A stretch of DNA of 39,673 nt. Source: a virus. Its lineage: Duplodnaviria; Heunggongvirae; Uroviricota; Caudoviricetes. Made by a program: the position numbers and the translations under genes. Of the stretch, positions 19,215-38,770 are shown piece by piece; position 1 is the stretch's first letter, and each line of letters begins with the position of its first letter. The DNA lies in IMG/VR virus record IMGVR_UViG_3300045988_165115; one strand, given 5' to 3'. Below the pieces are notes generated by a model that saw only the letters and a program-made list of their open reading frames with translations, made no database searches and had not been told where the DNA came from.

Positions 19215-19738
19215 ATGTACTCCAATGAAGAAACCAGCGAAATAGCTGCCTTCATTCGTAGTAAACCTTTTTCATCAACGCAGTAATGGATTCTTTGAAG
19301 AGTCGCAATCAATACAACTCACTAATGGAGAGACTTGTCTCACGCATGAGACAAATTTCCCGTTTGAATTAATGGACACTATAGAGGGACAGAATGCCTT
19401 CCTCACTCGAATCACATCAATTAAGGAAGTTCAACATGTTTCATTCCACAAGTCATCAGGCTGTAATTATGGCAGCATCAGTTTGTGCCACAGACCTTTT
19501 CCGCTTCACTTTGAGCCTGATTCATTTCTACCTGACCGGCTCGCTTCTATCTTTTTAATCCCCGCTTTATCCAAATTGCATTGCCAGAATGCCGACAACA
19601 GACTGACATTCAAATCCTGACTACCTCCAATAGTCTGACCGTACACCTATATAGTTTTAATTTTCATCAATCCATTTAACTATCGTTTAATTGTTGTCAC
19701 ATAGGATTCTGCCGTTTTTAACAATGCAGGATAATAAG

Positions 19739-20032
19739 ATGAAAAAAATGTTGTTTTCTGCCGCTCTGGCAATGCTTATTACAGGATGTGCTCAACAGAC
19801 GTTTACTGTTGGAAACAAACCTACAGCAGTAACACCAAAGGAAACCATCACCCATCATTTCTTCGTTTCGGGAATTGGACAGCAGAAAACTGTTGATGCA
19901 GCCAAAATTTGTGGCGGCGCAGAAAATGTTGTTAAAACAGAAACCCAGCAAACATTCGTAAATGGATTGCTCGGTTTTATTACTTTAGGCATTTATACTC
20001 CGCTGGAAGCGCGTGTGTATTGCTCACAATAA
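19739..20032 (+). CDS. bor: Bor lipoprotein (serum-resistance factor)
   Basis: Translation MKKMLFSAALAMLITGCAQQTFTV... is nearly identical to lambda Bor as recalled; lipobox LITGC; AGGA Shine-Dalgarno 7 nt upstream; opposite to the lysis genes as in lambda. Confidence 0.9.
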   Translation: MKKMLFSAALAMLITGCAQQTFTVGNKPTAVTPKETITHHFFVSGIGQQKTVDAAKICGGAENVVKTETQQTFVNGLLGFITLGIYTPLEARVYCSQ

Positions 20033-20063: not shown

Positions 20064-20525
20064 CTATCTGCACTGCTCATTAATATACTTCTGGGTTCCT
20101 TCCAGTTGTTTTTGCATAGTGATCAGCCTCTCTCTGAGGGTGAAATAATCCCGTTCAGCGGTGTCTGCCAGTCGGGGGGAGGCTGCATTATCCACGCCGG
20201 AGGCGGTGGTGGCTTCACGCACTGACTGACAGACTGCTTTGATGTGCAACCGACGACGACCAGCGGCAACATCATCACGCAGAGCATCATTTTCAGCTTT
20301 CGCATCAGCTAACTCCTTCGTGTATTTTGCATCGAGCGCAGCAACATCACGCTGACGCATCTGTATGTCAGTAATTGCCGCGTTCGCCAGCGTCAGTTCT
20401 CTGGCATTTTTGTCGCGCTGGGCTTTGTAGGTAATGGCGTTATCACGGTAATGATTAACCGCCCATGACAGACAGACGATGATGCAGATAACCAGAGCGG
20501 AGATAATCGCGGTTAATCTGTTCAT
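20064..20525 (-). CDS. Rz: Rz i-spanin
   Basis: 153 aa with N-terminal transmembrane helix and coiled coil; overlaps the endolysin stop; Rz1 is embedded in it. Confidence 0.9.
20123..20305 (-). CDS. Rz1: Rz1 o-spanin lipoprotein, embedded in Rz in the +1 frame
   Basis: 60 aa with lipobox VVVGC and a proline-rich stretch (PPPPPAW...PPPDW), as in lambda Rz1. Confidence 0.85.
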
Positions 20526-20998
20526 ACCTCAATCTCTCTGACCATTCCGCCCGCTTCTTTGAATTTTGCAATCAGGCTGTCAGCCTTATGCTCGAACTGA
20601 CCATAACCAGCGCCCGGCAGTGAAGCCCAGATATTGCTGCAACGGTCGATAGCCTGACGAATATCACCGCGATCAATCATCGGTAAAGCGCCACGCTCTT
20701 TAATCTGTTGCAGTGCCACAGCGTCCTGGCTTTTCGGAGAGAAGTCTTTCAGGCCAAGCTGCTTGCGGTAAGCATCCCACCAGCGTGAAAGAAGTTGATA
20801 ACGGCCTGCAGCTGTTGATTTGAGTTTCGGGTTTAGCGTGACAAGTTTGCGAGGGTGATCGGAGTAATCAGTGAAGAGTTCTCCACCGACAATAACGTCA
20901 TAACCGTGGTTACGTGTCGGTTGTCGCCCGTTATCCGTTCCCTCTGACCATGCCACCATATCCAGGAAAGCTTTACGCTGGGAATTTAGTACCTGCAT
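20522..20998 (-). CDS. R: endolysin, lambda R-type lytic transglycosylase
   Basis: 158 aa; ...[35 protein letters not shown]... matches lambda R as recalled. Confidence 0.9.
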
Positions 20999-21001
20999 AA
21001 A

Positions 21002-21328
21002 TTACTCCTTAGAGCCACCAAACTTGTTACCGATTACTCTCATTGCAGCCCCACGAATAGCATCAACACCGATCAGCCCCACCCCACCACCAATGGCAAC
21101 AGATAGTGATTTAGGCCATCCGACATACTCAAGAGCGGATGCAAAAGTCAGCGTCAGAGCGCCACAGAGTAGAATTTCGAGTGTTTTTCGCTTCCAGCCG
21201 CCACCACCGCCAAAATAGGCAATACGTAAACCAGCCATAACAATCGACATAATCACTGCGCCCAGCGGTGTGTCTCCACGCCACCAGCTCTGGACCAACT
21301 CCAGCCATGTATTTGGGTTATGAGGCAT
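21002..21328 (-). CDS. S: holin, lambda S family (class I)
   Basis: 108 aa with hydrophobic helices and a charged C-terminus (GNKFGGSKE); sits directly upstream of the endolysin. Confidence 0.75.
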   Translation of the reverse strand: MPHNPNTWLELVQSWWRGDTPLGAVIMSIVMAGLRIAYFGGGGGWKRKTLEILLCGALTLTFASALEYVGWPKSLSVAIGGGVGLIGVDAIRGAAMRVIGNKFGGSKE

Positions 21329-21467
21329 TTGTAGTTATCTCTCACCTCGCTGATACAGCAGGTGCAAATTGAGGAAACATCATGTACCGCAAATCAGAAG
21401 CGGAAACGTCAAAGAAGCCGAGTCAATGGATAACTGCGGGATAGGCTAGGACCAAGGAATCCCCAGA

Positions 21468-21502
21468 CCCAGAAACGACAAAACCCGCTCGATGGCGGGT
21501 TT
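21468..21502 (-). terminator. rho-independent terminator-like hairpin, candidate tR' of the late operon
   Basis: Perfect 8-bp stem AAACCCGC/GCGGGTTT with a 6-nt loop; on the minus strand it is followed by TTTTGTCGTTTCT. Confidence 0.5.
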
Positions 21503-21619
21503 AAGCTGTGTGGCGAAGTGAGCACACTTAACAGATTACGATATTTTTTGCGTACGCGTTAGTGTTTTGATAGAATTTTCAGCCACATAAAAATTCATTC
21601 TTATAATTCGGGATATATA

Positions 21620-22795
21620 ATGGATATAACTTGTTTAGAATGTGGCAATGTTCTTGACGACCCAACTGTAGCTTGCGATAAATGCGGTGCCACGCCTCAT
21701 GTTGTAGTGCTGGGCAAACAATCGTACTTTCCTATTGGTGCTGTAACAGCAAATCTTGAAAAAAATGATTCAAGAGCATTTGATTATCGATTAGGTGAAG
21801 TTTGGGATCTAAAAAATGAAGTCACATCTGAATTCATAACCAGAATTGAGAAAAAATTTAGCCGAAAAAACAAATTTCATAACTTCCTAGACTCAGATCA
21901 CAACCCTTCATCCATTCCTACGATCCTAAAAAAATACATTAATAAAAATAATGAATTCATTGATTTATCTAGAGCTATAATAGAGAAGCTTAAACATAAT
22001 GCTAATAACGAATCGAGAGTTGCCCAACTTCAGGGGGGGAGCGTTGTTTTCATCCACTATAAGTCTACCGAACCAGAGGATTTGGGGAAACTTCTAATCG
22101 TAATGGTTGATAAACAAAGCGCCTATGACTTTGATTCGGATAAGTTGACCCCAACAAGATTAAATCCAATTAATACCGATGCCTTACGGCAGGCTGCGAT
22201 GTTCGATTTAACTTTATTCGAAGCCAGTTATCCAGAAAACAAGGGTGACTCATATGTACATTTCTTGCAAGGTAAATCTAAAAGCGATTTTTTCAAAGAC
22301 TCATTAGGTTGCCGACATGATTCGGACAATAAAAGAAGCATTCAGCAATTATTCAGTGCTATAGATATTTTTGCTAGTAAAAACTCACTCGGTCGTGTAC
22401 TGCGTGATACTATTGACAATGAAGTTAAATCCTTACTGGAAAAAAAATCAAAAGATAAACACGGAAATAAGTCCGTTAAGATAGAGGATATTTCAAAAAT
22501 AATTGACTCATGCCTGACTGATTCACACAAATGTAAGGGAACGTTTGTCGATTTTGTTAATCTTAATGGTTTCCAGATTGACCCTCAATTTGAACCAACT
22601 CCTAAAGCAGCTGAAAGCGCGCTTACAATTGAAGTGGCAGATAACGACAATAATTTTAAGTTGAAAATAATGCGTGGAGCTATTGGAGACGAAAAGTCAA
22701 ATAAGCCTGTAATTCTCACTGACAACAAATGCGAAATTGTGATAAAATTGAGTCAGGCAAATTATGATGAACTCAAAAGATATAGAGACAGCTAA
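21620..22795 (+). CDS. zinc-ribbon plus NdpA/YejK-like (NA37) nucleoid-associated-protein-like domain protein; first gene of the cargo operon
   Basis: N-terminal CxxC-x12-CxxC; central region (GGSVVFIHY...LNPINTD...DLTLFE...YVHFLQGKS...DFFKDSLGC) follows the YejK/NdpA motif pattern as recalled; AT-rich; opposite strand to the late genes. Confidence 0.55.
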   Translation: MDITCLECGNVLDDPTVACDKCGATPHVVVLGKQSYFPIGAVTANLEKNDSRAFDYRLGEVWDLKNEVTSEFITRIEKKFSRKNKFHNFLDSDHNPSSIPTILKKYINKNNEFIDLSRAIIEKLKHNANNESRVAQLQGGSVVFIHYKSTEPEDLGKLLIVMVDKQSAYDFDSDKLTPTRLNPINTDALRQAAMFDLTLFEASYPENKGDSYVHFLQGKSKSDFFKDSLGCRHDSDNKRSIQQLFSAIDIFASKNSLGRVLRDTIDNEVKSLLEKKSKDKHGNKSVKIEDISKIIDSCLTDSHKCKGTFVDFVNLNGFQIDPQFEPTPKAAESALTIEVADNDNNFKLKIMRGAIGDEKSNKPVILTDNKCEIVIKLSQANYDELKRYRDS

Positions 22796-22797
22796 TA

Positions 22798-24012
22798 ATG
22801 ACAATTGCTGATGACTTATCAAGATTAGCGCAGATTATTAACGGAGCCTCAAGCAGAGTTGAGGGCTACTACACTGTCATAAGTCTTGAAGAAAGCATTG
22901 TTATTGTAAATAGTTCTGAAATAATTAGACTGTTACAATCTATAGGTTATAAAAAGGCAACAACCTGCATCGAAAATAATGAAATTTGGCTAGATCGCCA
23001 AGCTTCATCTTGGGATGATGCTATAATTTATGAGAATGTTGAGTCTTTTTGGTCTAGAGTAAACACCCAAAACGCTCTTCCGAAAAATTATATCATCGGA
23101 ACGCCGTTAATACTCCCTACTTCTAAGAATGAAAGCATCGAAAAAATCCATATTTTCTTTATGTGGAAAGATATCCTTTCATTAATTTCTGATCATCATA
23201 ACAGTGACTGCTCTGTCTTATTTTTCACCAATGAAGACAAAAGTTATACAGTCGAACTCACGCATTTTTTACAATATAGCGAGATTAATCGCTTATCGAA
23301 CTCGTCTCTTAAATATGAAATTATAAAGGAGCTTCTCGACACAATAAAAATCAATGATTTACACAAAAGCGAGCGCAAGCTCGTTATACGCTCAGCCATA
23401 AACGAAGTATTTAAAGCAAATGGTACGTTCAATTTCTTTGACTTGCTTAACTCTACTGAACTCGTCAGGAAAAAATATGATGAACTATATGAGATTTACA
23501 CAAAGAGGTTTTCTGTAAATAAAATTCTTAACGAACTCGATGAGAAAAATCTTGAGTTCACGAGTAAAATTAACGAATTCATATCATCTAATCAGACAAA
23601 AGCATTGACTATTCCCGGTGCATTAATAGCAGCTGGTGGCTTAGTGAAGGCTAATGAAACAACCGAAGCAATATTGATTATCGCAGGACTTTGGATGATA
23701 AAAAAAGTCAATTACATTTCTATTGAGATATTCAATGAAACATTCGACAACTTACGTTCTCGAGTGGAGTCCGCTTTCGATAAGTATTTAAAGTTTGAAG
23801 AAAATAAAGAAATCAAAGATAATGCAGATAGTATTAAGAGTAGCATTACAGGTTTGATTGATAAAGCTAAAAAAAGGATGAGAACTGTTAAATATCTCGC
23901 ATCAGCCATGTTTTATGGAGGCCTTATTTACGTTGGATATAAACAGTTCCCAGTCTTTTTTGAAAAATCGGCAGTAAATCTATTTTATTTTTTATGCCAT
24001 ACTATAAGCTAA
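22798..24012 (+). CDS. hypothetical membrane-associated protein, second gene of the cargo operon
   Basis: 404 aa; ATG 2 nt after the upstream stop; hydrophobic segments LTIPGALIAAGGLV, AILIIAGLWMI and YLASAMFYGGLIYVGY; 3' end overlaps the Q 3' end by 21 nt. Confidence 0.55.
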   Translation: MTIADDLSRLAQIINGASSRVEGYYTVISLEESIVIVNSSEIIRLLQSIGYKKATTCIENNEIWLDRQASSWDDAIIYENVESFWSRVNTQNALPKNYIIGTPLILPTSKNESIEKIHIFFMWKDILSLISDHHNSDCSVLFFTNEDKSYTVELTHFLQYSEINRLSNSSLKYEIIKELLDTIKINDLHKSERKLVIRSAINEVFKANGTFNFFDLLNSTELVRKKYDELYEIYTKRFSVNKILNELDEKNLEFTSKINEFISSNQTKALTIPGALIAAGGLVKANETTEAILIIAGLWMIKKVNYISIEIFNETFDNLRSRVESAFDKYLKFEENKEIKDNADSIKSSITGLIDKAKKRMRTVKYLASAMFYGGLIYVGYKQFPVFFEKSAVNLFYFLCHTIS

Positions 24013-24363
24013 CATTGCTAAACAGCCATCAACAAACCCCATTGCAGTTTGCAGTTCCTTCCTAATTGTGCCATCAGAGCATTTTCTCTTCTTCGCAATA
24101 GTGCGTAATGAGATACCGATAACAAAGTGGGCGATGATGAGCTCATATTCCTCTGGTTTATACCTTCTCAACCGAGCCACACAACTGTCTATCATGATGC
24201 CTTCGTCATCATCACACTGAATCCGTGACTTTTTGCCATGAGGTAAAAGTCCCTTGAAACCAGCCGCTATCGGCTGCCAGTCCACTCCGCTATTGTCTGA
24301 AGCAGCCCAAGCTCCCCAACGATCCATTACTTCATACATATCACGCATCAACTTTCTCCACAA
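23992..24363 (-). CDS. late-gene antiterminator Q
   Basis: 123 aa; ...MDRWGAWAASDN...WQPIAAGFKGLLP...CDDDEGIMID...CSDGTIRKELQTA... matches the Q (QuuD-like) family pattern as recalled. Confidence 0.75.
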   Translation of the reverse strand: MWRKLMRDMYEVMDRWGAWAASDNSGVDWQPIAAGFKGLLPHGKKSRIQCDDDEGIMIDSCVARLRRYKPEEYELIIAHFVIGISLRTIAKKRKCSDGTIRKELQTAMGFVDGCLAMLAYSMA

Positions 24364-24365
24364 AA

Positions 24366-25361
24366 TCAGGCCAACACACCAATTGCCAGCGCACGATCGA
24401 TAAAACGAAATATCAACTCCAGCTGGGAGCCATACTTCTCTTCAAATGCCACGGTATCCGCATGCAGCTCGTCGTGATGCTTTCTGCACAAAGGCAGCAC
24501 AAAGAGATCATGCTCTTTTGTACCCATTCCCCCCTGACCGTGGCCTATCAGATGGTGGGGATCATCAGCAGGCTTTCCACAACATGCACACGGCTGCGTC
24601 TTAACCCAGCGCGTGTACTTTTCATTAACCCAGCGGCGACGTTTTGGGCGTAACATAAAAGACTCCGGCGACTCCGGATCCACTTTCAGCGCCAGCACCT
24701 TTTTAGCTTTATCCTGGATGATGCTGGTGGCAGGAACCGAAGGCACAAGGTCACTTTCCCGGGTGACAGATGGCACAACAGGCTTCGGTAATCTCAGTGC
24801 CTTACGGGCTGCACTTTCCGGTAAGGCATCCGCCAGATCATTACGAACCAGCCACCAGCACAGTTCCGGCATTGTCACAACGTGACTGTCATCAAAACCG
24901 AGATCCCGACGCACGACAGACAACACCCAGCGGGCACAGTTATCCGTTGCCATTGATTCCAGCCGTTCCGTGAACTGGTCACGCAGCTGGTTATCGCAGT
25001 GCCAGCACAGACGAATTGCTCCCGGAGCGTGCCGCATTGTGGTCATGTTCTCGCTGTGCCAGTCAGAATGAGGCCACTGACAGCCCTTTTCACGAAGTAA
25101 CCAGCTTTCAAGACATTCCACGCCACCAGCACGACGGATCACTGCCTCATTGCGGAACACGGTCCGAACGGCAGGATCATCCGCCAGCGGTTGTGATGCC
25201 GCCGGAACGGCACCACTGGCGAAAGATGAATAACGTTCCGGCTCTGGCTCCAGCAGGACACGCCCCTGCATAAACAGGGGCATCAGCTCTGAACCTGGCC
25301 TGAACAATACGATCCCCATACGCGGGGCAATTTCAGGCGTCAGTAGTGCTCTCACGGTCAC
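24366..25361 (-). CDS. DUF968/YdfU-like protein with a C-terminal HNH-like zinc-finger motif
   Basis: 331 aa; C-terminal CACCGKPADDPHHLIGHG...LCRKHHDELH; immediately upstream of Q. Confidence 0.55.
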   Translation of the reverse strand: MTVRALLTPEIAPRMGIVLFRPGSELMPLFMQGRVLLEPEPERYSSFASGAVPAASQPLADDPAVRTVFRNEAVIRRAGGVECLESWLLREKGCQWPHSDWHSENMTTMRHAPGAIRLCWHCDNQLRDQFTERLESMATDNCARWVLSVVRRDLGFDDSHVVTMPELCWWLVRNDLADALPESAARKALRLPKPVVPSVTRESDLVPSVPATSIIQDKAKKVLALKVDPESPESFMLRPKRRRWVNEKYTRWVKTQPCACCGKPADDPHHLIGHGQGGMGTKEHDLFVLPLCRKHHDELHADTVAFEEKYGSQLELIFRFIDRALAIGVLA

Positions 25362-28983: not shown

Positions 28984-29322
28984 CTATTTCCCTGAATTTA
29001 CGACGAAACTGTTCGAGCGGACTGAAGCATTCATGCTCATAACCTTCGCGGAGGTAGATAACCCGTTGTGTTTCCGGCTCCCAACGAATGACTCTGACGG
29101 GCACTCCGTAGTGATCTTTGAACCAGCGGTTAACTTGTCGCAAAGGACTGTCTCCTTCTGCCGGTTGAAATCACCCACAGCCCACTCTGCAAAGCTGTGG
29201 GTTACAATTTCCCTGTCACCTGGTACATTCACTGCATAGCAATATTCCACCTTCGCTTTTCCACCCGGTACCGGAAGCGCAATCAGTTGCGAGCGACGGT
29301 AGTGTGTTGTTAAACTGTTCAT
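28984..29322 (-). CDS. hypothetical early-operon protein, positional equivalent of e14 ymfM
   Basis: 112 aa between the YmfL-like gene and the replication initiator. Confidence 0.4.
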
Positions 29323-29876
29323 GCGTTAGTTTCTCCACAACCAGAAGCAATCGACGCCACGACGCCCGGAGCTGCACACTCGCGGGCGTCATTACTTTCT
29401 GAAATGCAAAAAATTTTGTAGACAAGTGCTGCATGCTCCTGCAGCTTCGAAATTGAGAGATACAGCTCGTCGTTAATTGCTGTCTTCTCATGCGGTTCCA
29501 CTACACCGTCTTCGATTGCTGAACGAATCTGTTTTGAATAACTGCCGATCTGTTCAATGACTTCCAGCAGACGCTGGTTAATATCGGCGTTGTCCACATC
29601 CTCGACGTCAGGAAGAGACACAAAGACGCCATTTGCAGACTGCGCCACAGCATCAGCAATGAAGTGAGTGCCACCAGCACGCTGTAAAACCATTGCCCAT
29701 CCCAGCGGGAAAATCTGATCGCCATCTGCACGAAGGCGGTTGAATAAAGCGTTTTCTGTTACATCGAGCCAGTCAGCCGCTTCAGCGTAACCACCCGGCA
29801 ACGCCGCGATAGTTTTTCTGACAGCTTTCACGTACCACTCAGGCTGTTTTTCTATTTTCCAGTGATGCTTACCCAC
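29319..29876 (-). CDS. hypothetical early-operon protein, positional equivalent of e14 ymfL / lambda cII
   Basis: 185 aa directly downstream of cro with overlapping stop/start. Confidence 0.45.
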
Positions 29877-30226: not shown

Positions 30227-30919
30227 ATGAACATAGGAAACCGAGTCAGACAACTTCGCCAAGCGAAGAACATGAAAATCGCCGATCTCGCTGAAGCAAT
30301 AGGAGTAGATGCGGCGAACATCTCGCGCTTAGAAACGGGTAAGCAAAAACAATTTACCGAACAAACACTGAGTAATATTGCCAAGAGCTTAGGTGTTGAT
30401 ATTGCTGATCTCTTTACCTCTGCCCTCAAAAGTAATACTGTATATAAAAACAGTAATAATGAGGATGTTGCGCAGGTGAAGGATGTGTTCCGTATTGAAA
30501 TGCTGGATATCAGTGCCAGTGCGGGAAATGGCCTTATCCAGGGCGGTGATGTCATTGATGTGATTCATGCCATCGAATACAGAACTGATAATGCTGTATC
30601 AATGTTCGGCGGACGACCAGCCAATCACATCAAAGTTATCAACGTTCGTGGGGACAGTATGTGTCCAACCATTGAGCCAGGAGATCTCATCTTCGTTGAT
30701 GTCAGCATCAATCAGTTTGATGGTGATGGTATATATGTCTTTGGTTTTGATGACAAAATATACGTTAAAAGACTTCAAATGATTCCTGACAAACTGCTGG
30801 TGATTTCTGATAACCAGATTTACCGTGAATGGGGAATTACTAGCGAAAACGAACACCGATTCATGGTCTTTGGAAAGGTCTTAATCAGTCAGTCGCAAAC
30901 CCTTAAGAGACATAATTAA
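30227..30919 (+). CDS. CI-like prophage repressor (HTH_XRE plus S24 LexA-like autopeptidase)
   Basis: N-terminal HTH (NMKIADLAEAIGVDAANISRLETGK) and C-terminal S24 motifs (GDSMCPTIEPGDLIFVD ... KRL). Confidence 0.9.
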   Translation: MNIGNRVRQLRQAKNMKIADLAEAIGVDAANISRLETGKQKQFTEQTLSNIAKSLGVDIADLFTSALKSNTVYKNSNNEDVAQVKDVFRIEMLDISASAGNGLIQGGDVIDVIHAIEYRTDNAVSMFGGRPANHIKVINVRGDSMCPTIEPGDLIFVDVSINQFDGDGIYVFGFDDKIYVKRLQMIPDKLLVISDNQIYREWGITSENEHRFMVFGKVLISQSQTLKRHN

Positions 30920-34021: not shown

Positions 34022-34282
34022 ATGAGGTTATCAAAAATGCTTCAAATGCTGACACTTGAGGAATGGGCTGCGGAAAAATTTAGGAGTAATCCTCCAAGTG
34101 TGTCCACATTGCGTCGTTATGCTAAGCAGAATTTATTTTGTCCACCAGCAATGAAACAAGGTCGACTCTGGCGAGTACGTGAGGACGCAGAGTTAGTTGG
34201 GGAATTAGTTACTCCAGTAATCAAGAAAAGTGATTCTATTATTCTGCAAAGGATTTTAAGCAATGGCAGCCAGACCACGTAA
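34022..34282 (+). CDS. xis: excisionase (lambda Xis-like); start uncertain, alternative ATGs at 34037 and 34046
   Basis: LTLEEWAAEKFRSNPPSVSTLRRYAKQNLFCPPAMKQGRLW parallels lambda Xis; overlaps the int start. Confidence 0.7.
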   Translation: MRLSKMLQMLTLEEWAAEKFRSNPPSVSTLRRYAKQNLFCPPAMKQGRLWRVREDAELVGELVTPVIKKSDSIILQRILSNGSQTT

Positions 34283-35390
34283 AAATAATGTTTCAGTACC
34301 TAACTTGTATCCGCTTTATAGTAGAAAAGTAAATAAAGTCTATTGGCGATATAAGCATCCAGTGACCGGGAAATTTCATTCGTTGGGCACAAATGAAGCT
34401 GAAGCTATTGCTATTGCCACTGAAGCTAACACTCGTCTGGCTGAGCAAAGAACCCGGCAGATTCTAGCTATCAGTGATAGGATCGCAACCAGCAAAGGAA
34501 AAGCGATCACAACGTCAACCTGGTTAGATCGCTATCAAGCGATCCAGGATGACAGGCTCAAAAGTGGTGATATAAGACTCAACACCTATAAGCAAAAAGC
34601 TAAACCAGTATCCTTGCTCAGAGAACGAGCAGGAATGAAGTTGATCTCATCCGTTGATGTTAGAGATATAGCACAATTGCTTGATGAGTATATTGCAGCT
34701 GGACAGCCTAGAATGGCCCAAGTCGTTAGGTCTGTATTGATCGATGTGTTTAAGGAAGCACAGCATTATGGCGAAGTTCCGCCAGGGTATAACCCTGCTC
34801 TTGCGACGAAGCAACCCAAAAGAAAAATTACCCGTCAACGCCTCAGCCTGGAAGAATGGCAAAAAATATTCGATATAGCAGACGCCAGTCATCGTTACAT
34901 GGGAAATGCCATGCTCCTAGCTTTGGTCACTGGGCAGCGTTTGGGAGATATATCCAAAATGAAATTTAGTGATATTTGGGAAGATCATCTTCACGTCATT
35001 CAGGAAAAGACTGGAAGCAAAATCGCTATCCCTCTTTCTCTTCGCCTCAATGCGATTAACTGGAGTTTACGCGATGTAATAGCCCGCTGCCGTGACTATG
35101 CAGTCAGCCCATACCTAGTGCATTTTTTCCGTTCAACTTCACAAGCAGAACGTGGGGCACAGGTTAAATCCAATACATTGACGATGAACTTTAGTAAAGC
35201 GAGAGATTTAGCAGGAATTGACTGGGGTGATGGCTCACCCGCAACATTCCATGAACAAAGATCGTTATCTGAACGCCTGTACAAGGAGCAAGGGATAGAT
35301 ACCAGAAAGCTACTTGGGCATAAAACACAACAACAAACCGATCGTTACCATGATGACCGAGGGAAAGGTTGGAGCAAAGTAGCTTTGTGA
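34263..35390 (+). CDS. int: tyrosine site-specific integrase, lambda Int family
   Basis: 375 aa; catalytic-region motifs (LALVTGQRLGDISKMKFSD; HEQRSLSERLY; LLGHKTQQQTDRYHDDRG) align with lambda Int. Confidence 0.9.
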   Translation: MAARPRKNNVSVPNLYPLYSRKVNKVYWRYKHPVTGKFHSLGTNEAEAIAIATEANTRLAEQRTRQILAISDRIATSKGKAITTSTWLDRYQAIQDDRLKSGDIRLNTYKQKAKPVSLLRERAGMKLISSVDVRDIAQLLDEYIAAGQPRMAQVVRSVLIDVFKEAQHYGEVPPGYNPALATKQPKRKITRQRLSLEEWQKIFDIADASHRYMGNAMLLALVTGQRLGDISKMKFSDIWEDHLHVIQEKTGSKIAIPLSLRLNAINWSLRDVIARCRDYAVSPYLVHFFRSTSQAERGAQVKSNTLTMNFSKARDLAGIDWGDGSPATFHEQRSLSERLYKEQGIDTRKLLGHKTQQQTDRYHDDRGKGWSKVAL

Positions 35391-35600: not shown

Positions 35601-36716
35601 TTAAATTAAATCAAATAGCCCATGTTCATCTATAGCCTTTGAACTAATTAAGTTCGCGGCTTCTATGTCATTGTCACTTGCCTCAGAAATAAGGAAAAAT
35701 GAATCAACATGATTTTGCAAAATAATTTCCTTATACTTCTTGAGCCATTGTAATTTACCTGTAGTGAACAATACTTTACGCGGTAGCAAAATACGGCTAA
35801 AAACTGATGGAAGATACTCACTTCTATTAAATGGAATAAAAGGGTCGCCTAAAGAAAGAATAGTTAGACGATTAAATTCACCGTGCGAATTCAATTTTTC
35901 AGCTGATTTGGCTATACCACTTGGTAAAAAAACACCTGTCTTGATACCGTTGCGTAAAGCAACAACAGCCATCATTTTATCAAAGGCAGTACCTCCAAAT
36001 AATAAGGAATATCCTTTTTTAACAGAAAGATCAATAGTATCAAGAACAACTTGTTTTTCTATATCACTTGGTGACGTGCTCGAAATTATCGAAAGATCAA
36101 AATCAGTAAATAACTGCCCAGTATAATAAAGATTTTTGCCGGTGAAAGTTGACAACTTTAAAGGAAACATTTTATCATCATGCTTAATTTCAGATACATT
36201 AAGATCTGTTAAGGATGGATAGTTAAAGTTTGGTGAGGCTTTTCCGTGTTTATTATTTTTTGATGCCTGCGGACTAAAAACTAGAATTTCATTTTTATTA
36301 TTACACAGGTAATCCTGTATCATTTTTTTTACAATATCCCAATCAAGACCACCGTGACCACAACCTAAAGCTGGCAGGGTGATTGTTTTTCCATGTTTAT
36401 TATCCAAATATTTCGAGAGCCAATGCAGTCCTTTTTCGATATATTCGTACTTAGACTTATTTCTCCAATGATCCTTGGTGGGAAAGTTTATGATTTCTAT
36501 TTCCTTACCATACGTATCATTACCTTTCCAAACAGCTGGTCTTCCTGGAGATATTTCTCCTTTTTTACACAGCAATACGTATTCATTATACATTTCAGGA
36601 AACTTATTCTTAAAAGCAAAAGCAACCCCTGCCCCCATTACACCAACACAATTAACTGTATTAATTCTAATGTCAGCAGCATAATCGAAAAAATCACCAT
36701 CAACATATCTAATCAT
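35601..36716 (-). CDS. macrodomain protein (TARG1/DarG-type) with a C-terminal Rossmann/SLOG-like domain; candidate DarG-like partner
   Basis: Start set at MIRYVDG, preceded by AAGGAGG; macro motifs GDFFDYAADIRINTVNCVGVMGAGVAFAFKNKF and LPALGCGHGGLDW resemble TARG1/DarG; C-terminal LLFGGTAFDKMMAVVA glycine-rich loop; AT-rich. Confidence 0.6.
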   Translation of the reverse strand: MIRYVDGDFFDYAADIRINTVNCVGVMGAGVAFAFKNKFPEMYNEYVLLCKKGEISPGRPAVWKGNDTYGKEIEIINFPTKDHWRNKSKYEYIEKGLHWLSKYLDNKHGKTITLPALGCGHGGLDWDIVKKMIQDYLCNNKNEILVFSPQASKNNKHGKASPNFNYPSLTDLNVSEIKHDDKMFPLKLSTFTGKNLYYTGQLFTDFDLSIISSTSPSDIEKQVVLDTIDLSVKKGYSLLFGGTAFDKMMAVVALRNGIKTGVFLPSGIAKSAEKLNSHGEFNRLTILSLGDPFIPFNRSEYLPSVFSRILLPRKVLFTTGKLQWLKKYKEIILQNHVDSFFLISEASDNDIEAANLISSKAIDEHGLFDLI

Positions 36717-37186
36717 AAAACCTCCTTTGGTCAGAGTATACATCCTTATTTCTGGCTCTTCAATTCTATTGTCAAAAACTTTTACAAAGTCTGCATCAGT
36801 AAAACTGATGGCGCATTTTAAAATTAAAATCAATATGTCCATATCAAACGTTATATTTGTTATTTTTTGTATTTATTATTCATATCCATCATGTGCTATT
36901 AAATCGCCCAAAAGAACATAATAAATTATGTGCACCACTTTCTTCTTATTGAATTTTGGATTACATTACGATCTAAATTAGATCTTTTGCCAATATCATA
37001 AACATATGCAGCAAACGTTGCAACAAGCTGTTCTCATTCTAACAGTTAGTAGAATATAAACTCTGTAATTAGCACACTGAATTCCCTTCATCTATGAGTT
37101 ACAACATCCTTTAAGTGAATAGTATTGTTAGTTTAAATCTATTAATATCATTCATAAAACTATTTTATATAGTTAAAGTCATTATA

Positions 37187-37214
37187 AATCCATCTGAATA
37201 TATACAGATGGATT
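37187..37214. repeat. perfect 10-bp inverted repeat in the intergenic gap between the DarT-like and macro genes
   Basis: AATCCATCTG - 8-nt loop - CAGATGGATT. Confidence 0.5.
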
Positions 37215-37423
37215 CTGCCAATAGTCTTTGCAGGTGAAGTGCATGTTATATATTTTTTAGGGAATATATTTTCTAATTATTTCTCAGATAAAAATTTGCA
37301 GAACGAAATTACTTTACATAATACCGAATGTTACAGATTATTTTATTGCATATAAGCATTGAACTAACCACTATCACAGTGACTATGTTAATCATAAAAT
37401 CTGCATCAAATTCAAAAAGCTCC

Positions 37424-38770
37424 TCATAAACTGTTCCCCTGCAATCTTTGGAGAACTTCATCCCGGAGATCATCGATCCCGTCAGAAACCTGAGCTAACC
37501 AAACTTGACTTAATGAGCCAATATCAGCCTTACTTAGGGCTACTAACATATTGATATCTTCAGAAGATGTAACTATATCGAACAACTGATTTTTATTCCT
37601 CCCTTTAGCTACTATTTCCCCCAATAAATCATCATACGTAACTAACATCATTATTTTTCTAACTAGATCGGTTTGTATGACTGGCAGATCTTCTGTCAAA
37701 ATTCGTTGTAGCATCGCAAGTGACTTCCTAGGATGCTCTCCATCTGCCTCATGCATGTAATTATTATTCCAACGTGTTTTAGGCCCTTTGCCTATATCAT
37801 GCAAATAAGCGGCCAACTCCAAAACTTCCTGATGAATAGAGTCTAATTGATAAAACTCTGGTGAATTAACTACAAGACTAGCCACTCGTCGACTATGAGA
37901 GCCAACATCTTCATTATGAGGCCCGTAGCTCGTCCCCAATCCATCGATATCTTCAAGCTCTTGGATGGAGGAGAAATTACCACGAATTGCACTTAGAGCA
38001 TCACTAATACTTTGAAATTTTGGCCTCGTTTCTCGTTGAAATGAAGTTACATATTCAATAGCTTCATCAAAAAGCATTTTTAACACTACCGGTCCCGTGA
38101 CTAAGGATGAGGACCAGTTTCCAGGTTGATAATAATAATGTTGAAAATCACCCTCAACAATATTTGGTGGAACAATACCTTTGTTCTGGAAAATACTCCT
38201 CACAATATCAGACATAGAACGATTCCATGTAATTATCTGATTTATTTCGCTTAAAGAGACATGATCTGGCAGCAAAAGTTCTGCCATCTTTTTATGCCTC
38301 TGAGTCTCGTCAGCATAACCCCATGCATTATTATCTATGGTAGCCCAATCTAATACATCAAGCTGGTCAGCTTGAGTATTACCAGAATAAAAGTTCGGTG
38401 GATTAACTGTATTTGCGGAAGCATCTGTAAAATATGACCCATTCCTTGTTTCGAGTGATAATATAGAAACTGAAAGATAGATAATAAATTGCTGATCTAC
38501 ATTTTTTTTATGAAGAACAGACAATTGCATGGGCGTTTTTTTTGCAAAATAAAAAGGAACATAATCATGAACACAACGACCATTCGTATTAGGCACCTGC
38601 ATCACTGCCCTACGCCCCTGTATTCCTTCATCAGCAACATTCACATGTGATATACGACGTGCAATTTTCTGATTAGTCGAAAACAGCCCAGTTTCAATTA
38701 TTGATTCAAGATTATCTACTGACGTAAAGTGATATGCATTTCGGTGTCTATGGTGAACAGGAACTGTCAT
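37424..38770 (-). CDS. DarT-like (DUF4433) DNA ADP-ribosyltransferase domain fused to a C-terminal HD phosphohydrolase domain
   Basis: N-terminal YHFTSVDNLESIIETGL, HDYVPFYFAKKTPM, YFTDASANT and AELLL match DarT motifs including the catalytic glutamate position; C-terminal H...LHDIGKG HD signature; GGGGGA Shine-Dalgarno upstream. Confidence 0.6.
   Translation of the reverse strand: MTVPVHHRHRNAYHFTSVDNLESIIETGLFSTNQKIARRISHVNVADEGIQGRRAVMQVPNTNGRCVHDYVPFYFAKKTPMQLSVLHKKNVDQQFIIYLSVSILSLETRNGSYFTDASANTVNPPNFYSGNTQADQLDVLDWATIDNNAWGYADETQRHKKMAELLLPDHVSLSEINQIITWNRSMSDIVRSIFQNKGIVPPNIVEGDFQHYYYQPGNWSSSLVTGPVVLKMLFDEAIEYVTSFQRETRPKFQSISDALSAIRGNFSSIQELEDIDGLGTSYGPHNEDVGSHSRRVASLVVNSPEFYQLDSIHQEVLELAAYLHDIGKGPKTRWNNNYMHEADGEHPRKSLAMLQRILTEDLPVIQTDLVRKIMMLVTYDDLLGEIVAKGRNKNQLFDIVTSSEDINMLVALSKADIGSLSQVWLAQVSDGIDDLRDEVLQRLQGNSL

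Follow-up and report, generated by a model that had tools for sequence, protein, structure and literature searches.

The region between Q and the holin gene

The window analyzed here, the whole 39,673-nucleotide (nt) stretch of IMG/VR record IMGVR_UViG_3300045988_165115 (Caudoviricetes), carries an E. coli lambdoid prophage with its early-right and late operons on the minus strand. Our subject is the position of its late promoter, pR′, relative to the gene for the antiterminator Q, the holin gene S, and an antisense cargo operon that separates the two. We placed the Q gene at 23992–24348 (minus strand), where it encodes 118 amino acids (aa) from an ATG; RefSeq uses the ATG equivalent to 24348, and the mechanical open reading frame (ORF) reaches back to a TTG at 24363. 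Both Pfam and RefSeq identify the product as an antiterminator, with a complete PF06530 (Phage_antitermQ) domain at 159.8 bits over residues 6–120, and it gives a distant, weak but specific match to the structures of the phage 21 antiterminator Q21 (6P18 and 6JNX; E = 1e-3, 22 bits). Q and the second cargo gene are convergent and overlap by 21 nt (23992–24012), leaving zero non-coding DNA after Q. The first-pass annotation had placed the end of Q at 23992 with this overlap of the cargo gene 3′ end, and had noted that no conventional space for pR′ and a qut site exists right after Q; all of these coordinates were verified, as was the lack of space. On the far side of the cargo lies S (21002–21328, minus strand; ATG at 21328), a holin gene of the lambda family (PF05106, 88 bits) and the first late gene past the terminator described below, and 21329–21619 is the intergenic region between the holin ATG and the start of cargo gene 1 at 21620.

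The two cargo genes, which are low in GC content, lie on the plus strand at 21620–22795 and 22798–24012, 2 nt apart. The first encodes a YejK/NA37-like nucleoid-associated anti-phage protein (Pfam NA37), which scores 451.4 bits against NCBIfam NF053868 (DS1_1_antiphage; equivalog cutoff 330) as DS-1 component 1, and the second scores 375.3 bits against NF053869 (DS1_2_antiphage; equivalog cutoff 315) as DS-1 component 2. With both components above their equivalog cutoffs on the same strand, the cargo is a predicted two-gene DS-1 defense system. Newer RefSeq annotations label both genes anti-phage proteins, and a YejK-domain defense system was validated among the DS-numbered systems of the DefensePredictor paper (PMC13092281); PADLOC 2023 gave no match to the cargo, the system being absent from its models. 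Of 5426 complete E. coli genomes, 99 have the exact 3.9-kb arrangement, and the neighboring genes are intact. The DS-1 cassette extends over ~21573–24020, between the Q gene and the candidate Q target, and its antisense genes are bounded by the Q 3′ end on one side and by a conserved leader and terminator on the other, a slot of the type found in DLP12, 434, and PA-2.

A conserved module next to S

Next to S, at 21471–21572 (minus strand), we found a conserved module of ~90–100 bp. In alignments, its order on the late strand is an A-rich stretch, a palindrome, an A-tract, ~5 variable bases, the hexamer TAnnnT, a near-invariant GTTAAGAGTGGTTACTTCGCCACACAGCTTAAA, and a terminator. The palindrome GCGTACGC (21550–21557), which is specific to the Q subtype and unique in the window, is a candidate Q-binding element (QBE). 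A-tracts at 21544–21549 and 21565–21568 flank it on the late strand; they lie on the same strand ~20 nt, or two helical turns, apart, and this arrangement suggests an intrinsic bend or an UP-like element in a divergent promoter region.

As the pR′ −10 hexamer, the strongest candidate is TAATCT (21533–21538, minus strand), at a fixed position abutting GTTAAG. The hexamer at this position carries A2 and T6 in 73 of 73 unique sequences, T6 being imposed by the search pattern and A2 not, and it reads TAnnnT in 92% of them, with variable inner positions; fixed A2 and T6 around free inner positions is the signature of a putative −10-type element. TATCGT (21538–21543, minus strand) was kept as an alternative −10 candidate. 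The predicted pR′ start is at ~21526 ± 2, or at ~21531 if TATCGT is the −10. Imperfect candidates for a sigma-dependent pause element (SDPE) are AAGTGT (21524–21529) and CACTTC (21515–21520), which by position correspond to AAGAGT/AAGTGT at ~−3 to +3 and TACTTC/CACTTC at ~+7 to +12, and the conserved TAnnnT may itself be a pause element as an alternative to a −10. A geometry modeled on phage 21, with TATCGT as the −10 and TAAGTG as the SDPE, is less favored, because just 53% of unique sequences have a −10-like hexamer at the former position, compared to 100% at the position abutting GTTAAG. An assignment of AAAAnT as an offset −10 (82%) with TAnnnT as the pause element is also less likely, its spacing being too short and a −35 being absent, and no convincing sigma-E-type promoter was seen in the module by eye. 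At three loci that share both the Q and the DS-1 cassette of the window (L018, L051, and L117), GTATTGTATTGT replaces ATATCGTAATCT between the A-tract and GTTAAG (window 21533–21549), a difference that places recombination breakpoints inside the candidate promoter core.

Downstream of the hexamer, a near-invariant discriminator and leader (GTTAAGTGTGCTCACTTCGCCACACAGCTTAAACCCGCC...; 21481–21532, minus strand) is kept irrespective of downstream context and in each of the four Q subtypes, and its part before the terminator stem, 21532–21503, is unique in the window. The leader runs into a tR′-like intrinsic terminator (21471–21502, minus strand), in which the hairpin AAACCCGC-CATCGA-GCGGGTTT is followed by TGTCGTTTCT; the stem at 21502–21481 has eight pairs, five of them G–C, and the T-rich tail reaches ~21471. 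This is the best terminator-like site on the minus strand of 20900–24500, a result with which fold prediction agrees, and an intrinsic terminator between the candidate promoter and the first late gene was present in all relatives examined. The first-pass annotation had described a single terminator-like hairpin on the late strand, ~150 bp upstream of S. The distance (152 nt) stands, and no other hairpin is strong or is kept in relatives; the site is not literally alone, as a lenient scan of the minus strand also returned five weaker hairpins (23383–23370, 23001–22986, 22476–22461, 24432–24414, and 24390–24370). The predicted terminated RNA is ~52–56 nt, compared to ~50 nt in phage 21. Rfam gave no match for the whole window at gathering thresholds, and only chance-level matches for 21380–21700 at relaxed thresholds; thus, no described family accounts for the short terminated RNA. 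In the 1986 PA-2 record (L009, J02580), an annotated CRP-binding site of the porin gene lc at 1067–1087 corresponds to window 21506–21526, inside the near-invariant late leader, and the TGTGA half-site of this CRP site occurs only in the QuuD-type leader.

The module palindrome covaries with Q subtype

We compared the window with relatives that carry the same Q family: SfII, SfIV, Stx2a_WGPS2, mEp460, cdtI, 569R4, Stx1_14040, 434, PA-2, Lambda_4C10, mEp332, and K-12 DLP12. This comparison with the pR′/qut regions of same-Q phages, which had been proposed as a check, placed the same module on the S side in every relative examined, with a variable cassette separating it from Q. In the first seven of these relatives, different antisense cassettes sit tight against the Q 3′ end and are followed by the module and then by late genes; in the other five, the module flanks the porin genes nmpC or lc, between a QuuD-type Q and the holin gene. 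BLAST searches of phage records delimited the slot, with S-side homology reaching 21568 and Q-side homology, to other Q genes of the same type, reaching 24021–24038, which is 27–44 nt before the Q stop and within the gene. Stx2a_WGPS2 has different late genes after the terminator and shares just 21480–21568, which suggests that the module is a discrete conserved element.

Among phages with different cassettes, the last ~10–15 codons of Q (residues ~104–118) are non-homologous, and the Q proteins are 108 to 131 aa long. The C-terminal tail of Q seems to come with the cassette. C-terminal residues of Q21 touch RNA polymerase (bioRxiv 10.1101/651190), and a cassette-specific tail may influence Q activity.

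For a broader sample, we collected 120 IMG/VR loci with a degenerate leader pattern, and 100 IMG/VR and reference loci had a same-strand upstream Q of the PF06530 type. The Q proteins formed four clusters at 70% identity (n = 43, 29, 23, and 5), and four palindromes were found, one per Q cluster: TTTAC-N4-GTAAA; (T/C)GCGTACGC(A); TGCGGTCCGCA, also written GCGGTCCGC; and TGTTATAACA. Pairing of Q cluster and palindrome held at 100 of 100 loci, which are not phylogenetically independent, with zero exceptions. Sequences after the terminator were common to several Q clusters, and ~40 different Q-to-module distances, from 37 to 2882 nt, were represented. Because the pairing held despite the shared downstream sequences and the many distances, the palindrome tracks Q rather than the cassette or the late genes. 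It behaves as would be expected of a Q-binding element, and in silico a Q-type-specific DNA element, the putative QBE, is present at the candidate promoter.

Six loci are free of a cassette, with a Q-to-module gap of 37–41 nt and ~37 nt from the Q stop to the hexamer. In one of them (L020), the palindrome begins 13 nt after the Q stop and is followed by the hexamer, the leader, the terminator, and late-region genes, so that the module occupies the canonical place of a putative pR′. The candidate late promoter is directly downstream of Q in these six relatives and 2.46 kb from Q in the window.

Cassette genes are antisense in all Q clusters but the smallest. The five loci of that cluster (L019, L035, L047, L094, and L112), whose Q is 62% identical to QuuD and whose palindrome is TGTTATAACA, have a single sense-oriented 214-aa ORF in the interval from Q to the module. 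In the Stx1a phage Stx1_14040 (L011, 3561–6621), a three-gene antisense cassette lies between Q and the module, the module lies ~440 nt upstream of stx1A, and a Q-controlled stx1 promoter is predicted ~2.2 kb from Q.

Position of late transcription

On this evidence, we think it probable, with considerable confidence, that a late module consisting of pR′, a Q target, and tR′ lies at ~21471–21572 (minus strand) next to S, and that the DS-1 cassette sits between Q and its target. One of the two placements entertained in the first-pass annotation, with pR′ inside the 21503–21620 gap, is thus supported by a conserved module there, by a palindrome that covaries with Q subtype, and by the occurrence of the module directly after Q in cassette-free relatives. 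The promoter activity, start site, Q binding, and read-through that we infer would combine as follows. RNA polymerase would start near 21526, by analogy with phage 21, and without Q would halt at the 21481–21502 hairpin to give a ~55-nt RNA. Q, encoded 2.5 kb away and expressed from the early rightward transcript, would bind the GCGTACGC palindrome by the promoter and load onto polymerase, and the Q-modified polymerase would pass the terminator and transcribe S, R, Rz, and the structural genes. The cargo would never be crossed by late transcription, and its own transcript would diverge from the late one and run convergently into the Q 3′ end.

Phage 21 provides the experimental precedent (Yin et al., 2019, bioRxiv 10.1101/651190). 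In its record (OL657228), whose annotation of the late cassette is experimentally based, a −35 lies six nt past the Q stop, and after it come a 16-bp QBE that abuts the −10, the start, an SDPE (+2 to +8), and a terminator that ends at ~+50. The window resembles phage 21 in having a Q of the same Pfam family, PF06530, a putative Q-specific element abutting a candidate −10, a predicted start a few nt on, and a terminator before the holin gene that would give an RNA of ~50 nt. It differs in that the phage 21 promoter lies 6 nt past the Q stop, whereas the candidate in the window lies 2.46 kb away across an antisense operon, in that phage 21 has a perfect TTGACA −35, whereas the window has no recognizable −35, and in that the two Q proteins match weakly (22 bits).

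DLP12 (qsr′), 434, and PA-2 are closer in layout: their Q belongs to the same family and is followed by an antisense cargo gene and then by the same leader and terminator ahead of the holin gene. Their cargo, however, is a porin gene (nmpC/lc) rather than a two-gene defense system, their Q subtype is 43–44% identical and is paired with TTTAC-N4-GTAAA rather than GCGTACGC, and their holin is of the S21 type rather than the lambda type. Q-dependent control of the DLP12 essD promoter has reportedly been shown; our sequence and keyword searches, beyond whose reach the key DLP12 papers lay, found no published start site or Q binding at this promoter. Control of the DLP12 lysis operon by both Q and RpoE is cited in PMC7918800, where the lux reporter fragment begins 645 nt upstream of the essD ATG, a span that includes the module and does not localize the promoter.

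P2/P4 hotspots and stx morons are similar in that variable accessory cassettes are swapped at a fixed position between conserved phage flanks, with at least 40 variants at the Q–module slot. Unlike the P2/P4 hotspots and stx downstream of pR′, the slot described here lies between a regulator gene and its putative DNA target, and unlike stx, the genes it holds nearly always run antisense to the phage operons on either side and so would not be under Q control. Far from being an anomaly, the predicted layout is widespread in this phage family, and DS-1 is a new occupant of a long-present, under-described cargo slot between Q and the putative pR′, the position held by nmpC or lc in DLP12, 434, and PA-2.

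Several results weigh against this placement of pR′. A sigma-70 consensus scan of the minus strand over 21440–21640 found no promoter at a 9/12 threshold; in the pR′ candidate, a reasonable −10 is accompanied by virtually nothing resembling a −35 (TAACGC/CTAACG) and lacks a clean extension; and no clear TAnnnT pause element is present between +1 and +15. The putative Q site of the window, a palindrome, is an inverted repeat, whereas that of Q21 is a direct one (ATTGAGCA/AATGAGCA). The leader invariance seen in the IMG/VR set is partly by construction, as these loci were retrieved with the leader pattern; the BLAST-derived set is free of this bias but smaller. Finally, Q and the module are linked, and the covariation counts are not counts of independent events.

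Alternative explanations

The poor −35 match and the empty consensus scan would also fit a module that contains a Q site, TAnnnT as a pause hexamer, and a terminator but no promoter, with polymerase arriving from cassette DNA at 21573–21640 or by early pR read-through across the cargo and taking up Q at the module. The 18 bp between the palindrome center and the TAnnnT center likewise resembles the ~20 bp between QBEd and SDPE in phage 21, as calculated from its record. We nevertheless regard a promoterless module as improbable. A promoter in cassette DNA would have to be recreated in dozens of unrelated cassettes, and in cassette-free loci only ~37 nt are available between the Q stop and the hexamer. 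Sigma-dependent pausing is inefficient at a distance of kilobases from a promoter.

We give slightly less credence to the idea that the Q system is a relic, in which an altered Q C-terminus or the separation of Q from its site inactivated antitermination and S-R-Rz, if expressed, are transcribed from a host-regulated promoter. The cassette-derived C-terminal tail of Q is consistent with this idea, as is DLP12, which has the same layout, is cryptic, and is the phage for which lysis-operon control by Q and RpoE is cited. The same layout, however, occurs in plaque-forming 434, PA-2, SfII, cdtI, and mEp460 and in Stx-converting phages, the Pfam Q domain of the window is complete, and the DS-1 version is carried by those 99 complete E. 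coli genomes with intact neighboring genes.

The other placement raised in the first-pass annotation, with pR′ and the Q loading site at or inside the Q 3′ end and a Q-modified polymerase crossing ~2.4 kb of cargo antisense to reach S and silencing the cargo in lytic growth, is very improbable: although it accords with the lack of intergenic space after Q, and although a Q-modified polymerase would disregard the weak hairpins inside the cargo, it would need a promoter and a Q site within Q coding sequence, where nothing non-coding or promoter-like is conserved and the last 27–44 nt are cassette-specific, it finds nothing conserved downstream of Q in a slot that holds at least 40 cassette lengths, also in functional phages such as 434 and the Stx phages, and it leaves unexplained both the far-side Q-subtype-specific palindrome with its fixed TAnnnT and the cassette-free loci with the module directly after Q. 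A promoter scan of the minus strand gave no match above chance at the Q end, and the promoter-like matches in the AT-rich cargo were at chance frequency (12 found versus 10.6 expected).

Placing pR′ next to S makes Q-dependent antisense transcription of the cargo unlikely. Q-independent early read-through past Q is plausible, as there is no strong terminator after Q and the early transcript would thus enter the cargo 3′ end. The first-pass demand that antisense RNA be absent across the cargo after induction is for this reason too strict a standard. If cargo silencing in lytic growth is real, it is more likely due to early read-through, or to Q bound over the cargo promoter, than to late transcription that depends on Q.

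Cargo expression and use of the slot

A candidate cargo promoter diverging from pR′ lies at 21548–21576 (plus strand), with a −35 of TTGCGT (21548–21553), a 17-bp spacer, and an extended −10 of TGaTAGAAT (21568–21576). Its −35 overlaps the palindrome GCGTACGC, and the cargo is probably transcribed divergently from this overlapping promoter. In 75% of 24 unique subtype-A junctions, which involve many different cassettes, a TAnnnT lies exactly 17 bp from TTGCGT, suggesting that the slot may supply a common −35 to incoming cassettes; in subtype B junctions the TTGCGT/17-bp/TAnnnT pattern was not evident. Distances from the palindrome center are 18 bp to the pR′ hexamer and 20 bp to that of the cargo. 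A speculative extension, which we consider unlikely though worth stating, is that Q binds the palindrome as a symmetric dimer midway between the divergent −10 elements, loading at the −35-less pR′ and occluding the cargo −35 TTGCGT, and that in the lysogen Q is damped by transcription entering it from the cargo, like paQ in lambda and phage 21. Such a coupling of Q to the cargo promoter, if true, would be a built-in self-immunity switch that turns prophage-borne defense off as the late genes come on.

Placement of pR′ next to S would remove an apparent anomaly, since late transcription need not cross the defense operon, and expression of the DS-1 cassette would be expected to be independent of Q. 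The comparison defines a recurrent Q–pR′ cargo slot shared by a large group of lambdoid phages from E. coli and Shigella, including Stx1, Stx2, and cdt phages, and because its flanks are exact, the slot can be mined for new defense systems. The four pairs of Q subtype and palindrome provide candidate Q-binding sites in a Q family for which only the Q21 site has been characterized. For Stx phages with the same Q type, the placement also predicts the location of the late promoter that would control the toxin genes.

Neighboring genes

The prophage assignment is accompanied by Pfam matches for a CI-like repressor (30227–30919, plus strand), a CII-like protein (29319–29876, minus strand), and a DUF968/HNH protein (24366–25361, minus strand). 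The ORF at 20522–20998 (minus strand), in the position expected for an endolysin, had no Pfam match, and the matching gene is a glycoside hydrolase family 24 protein in RefSeq annotation. Just past the prophage integrase (34263–35390), at 35601–38770 (minus strand), a 413-aa macro-domain protein is encoded together with a 448-aa protein combining DarT and HD domains; the pair looks like a DarTG-like toxin–antitoxin or defense pair with an unusual DarT–HD fusion. Just downstream of the Rz region, at 19691–20032 (plus strand), a 113-aa antisense ORF carries a lipoprotein signal (…LITGC…) and presumably resembles lambda Bor, whose gene is placed likewise in lambda.

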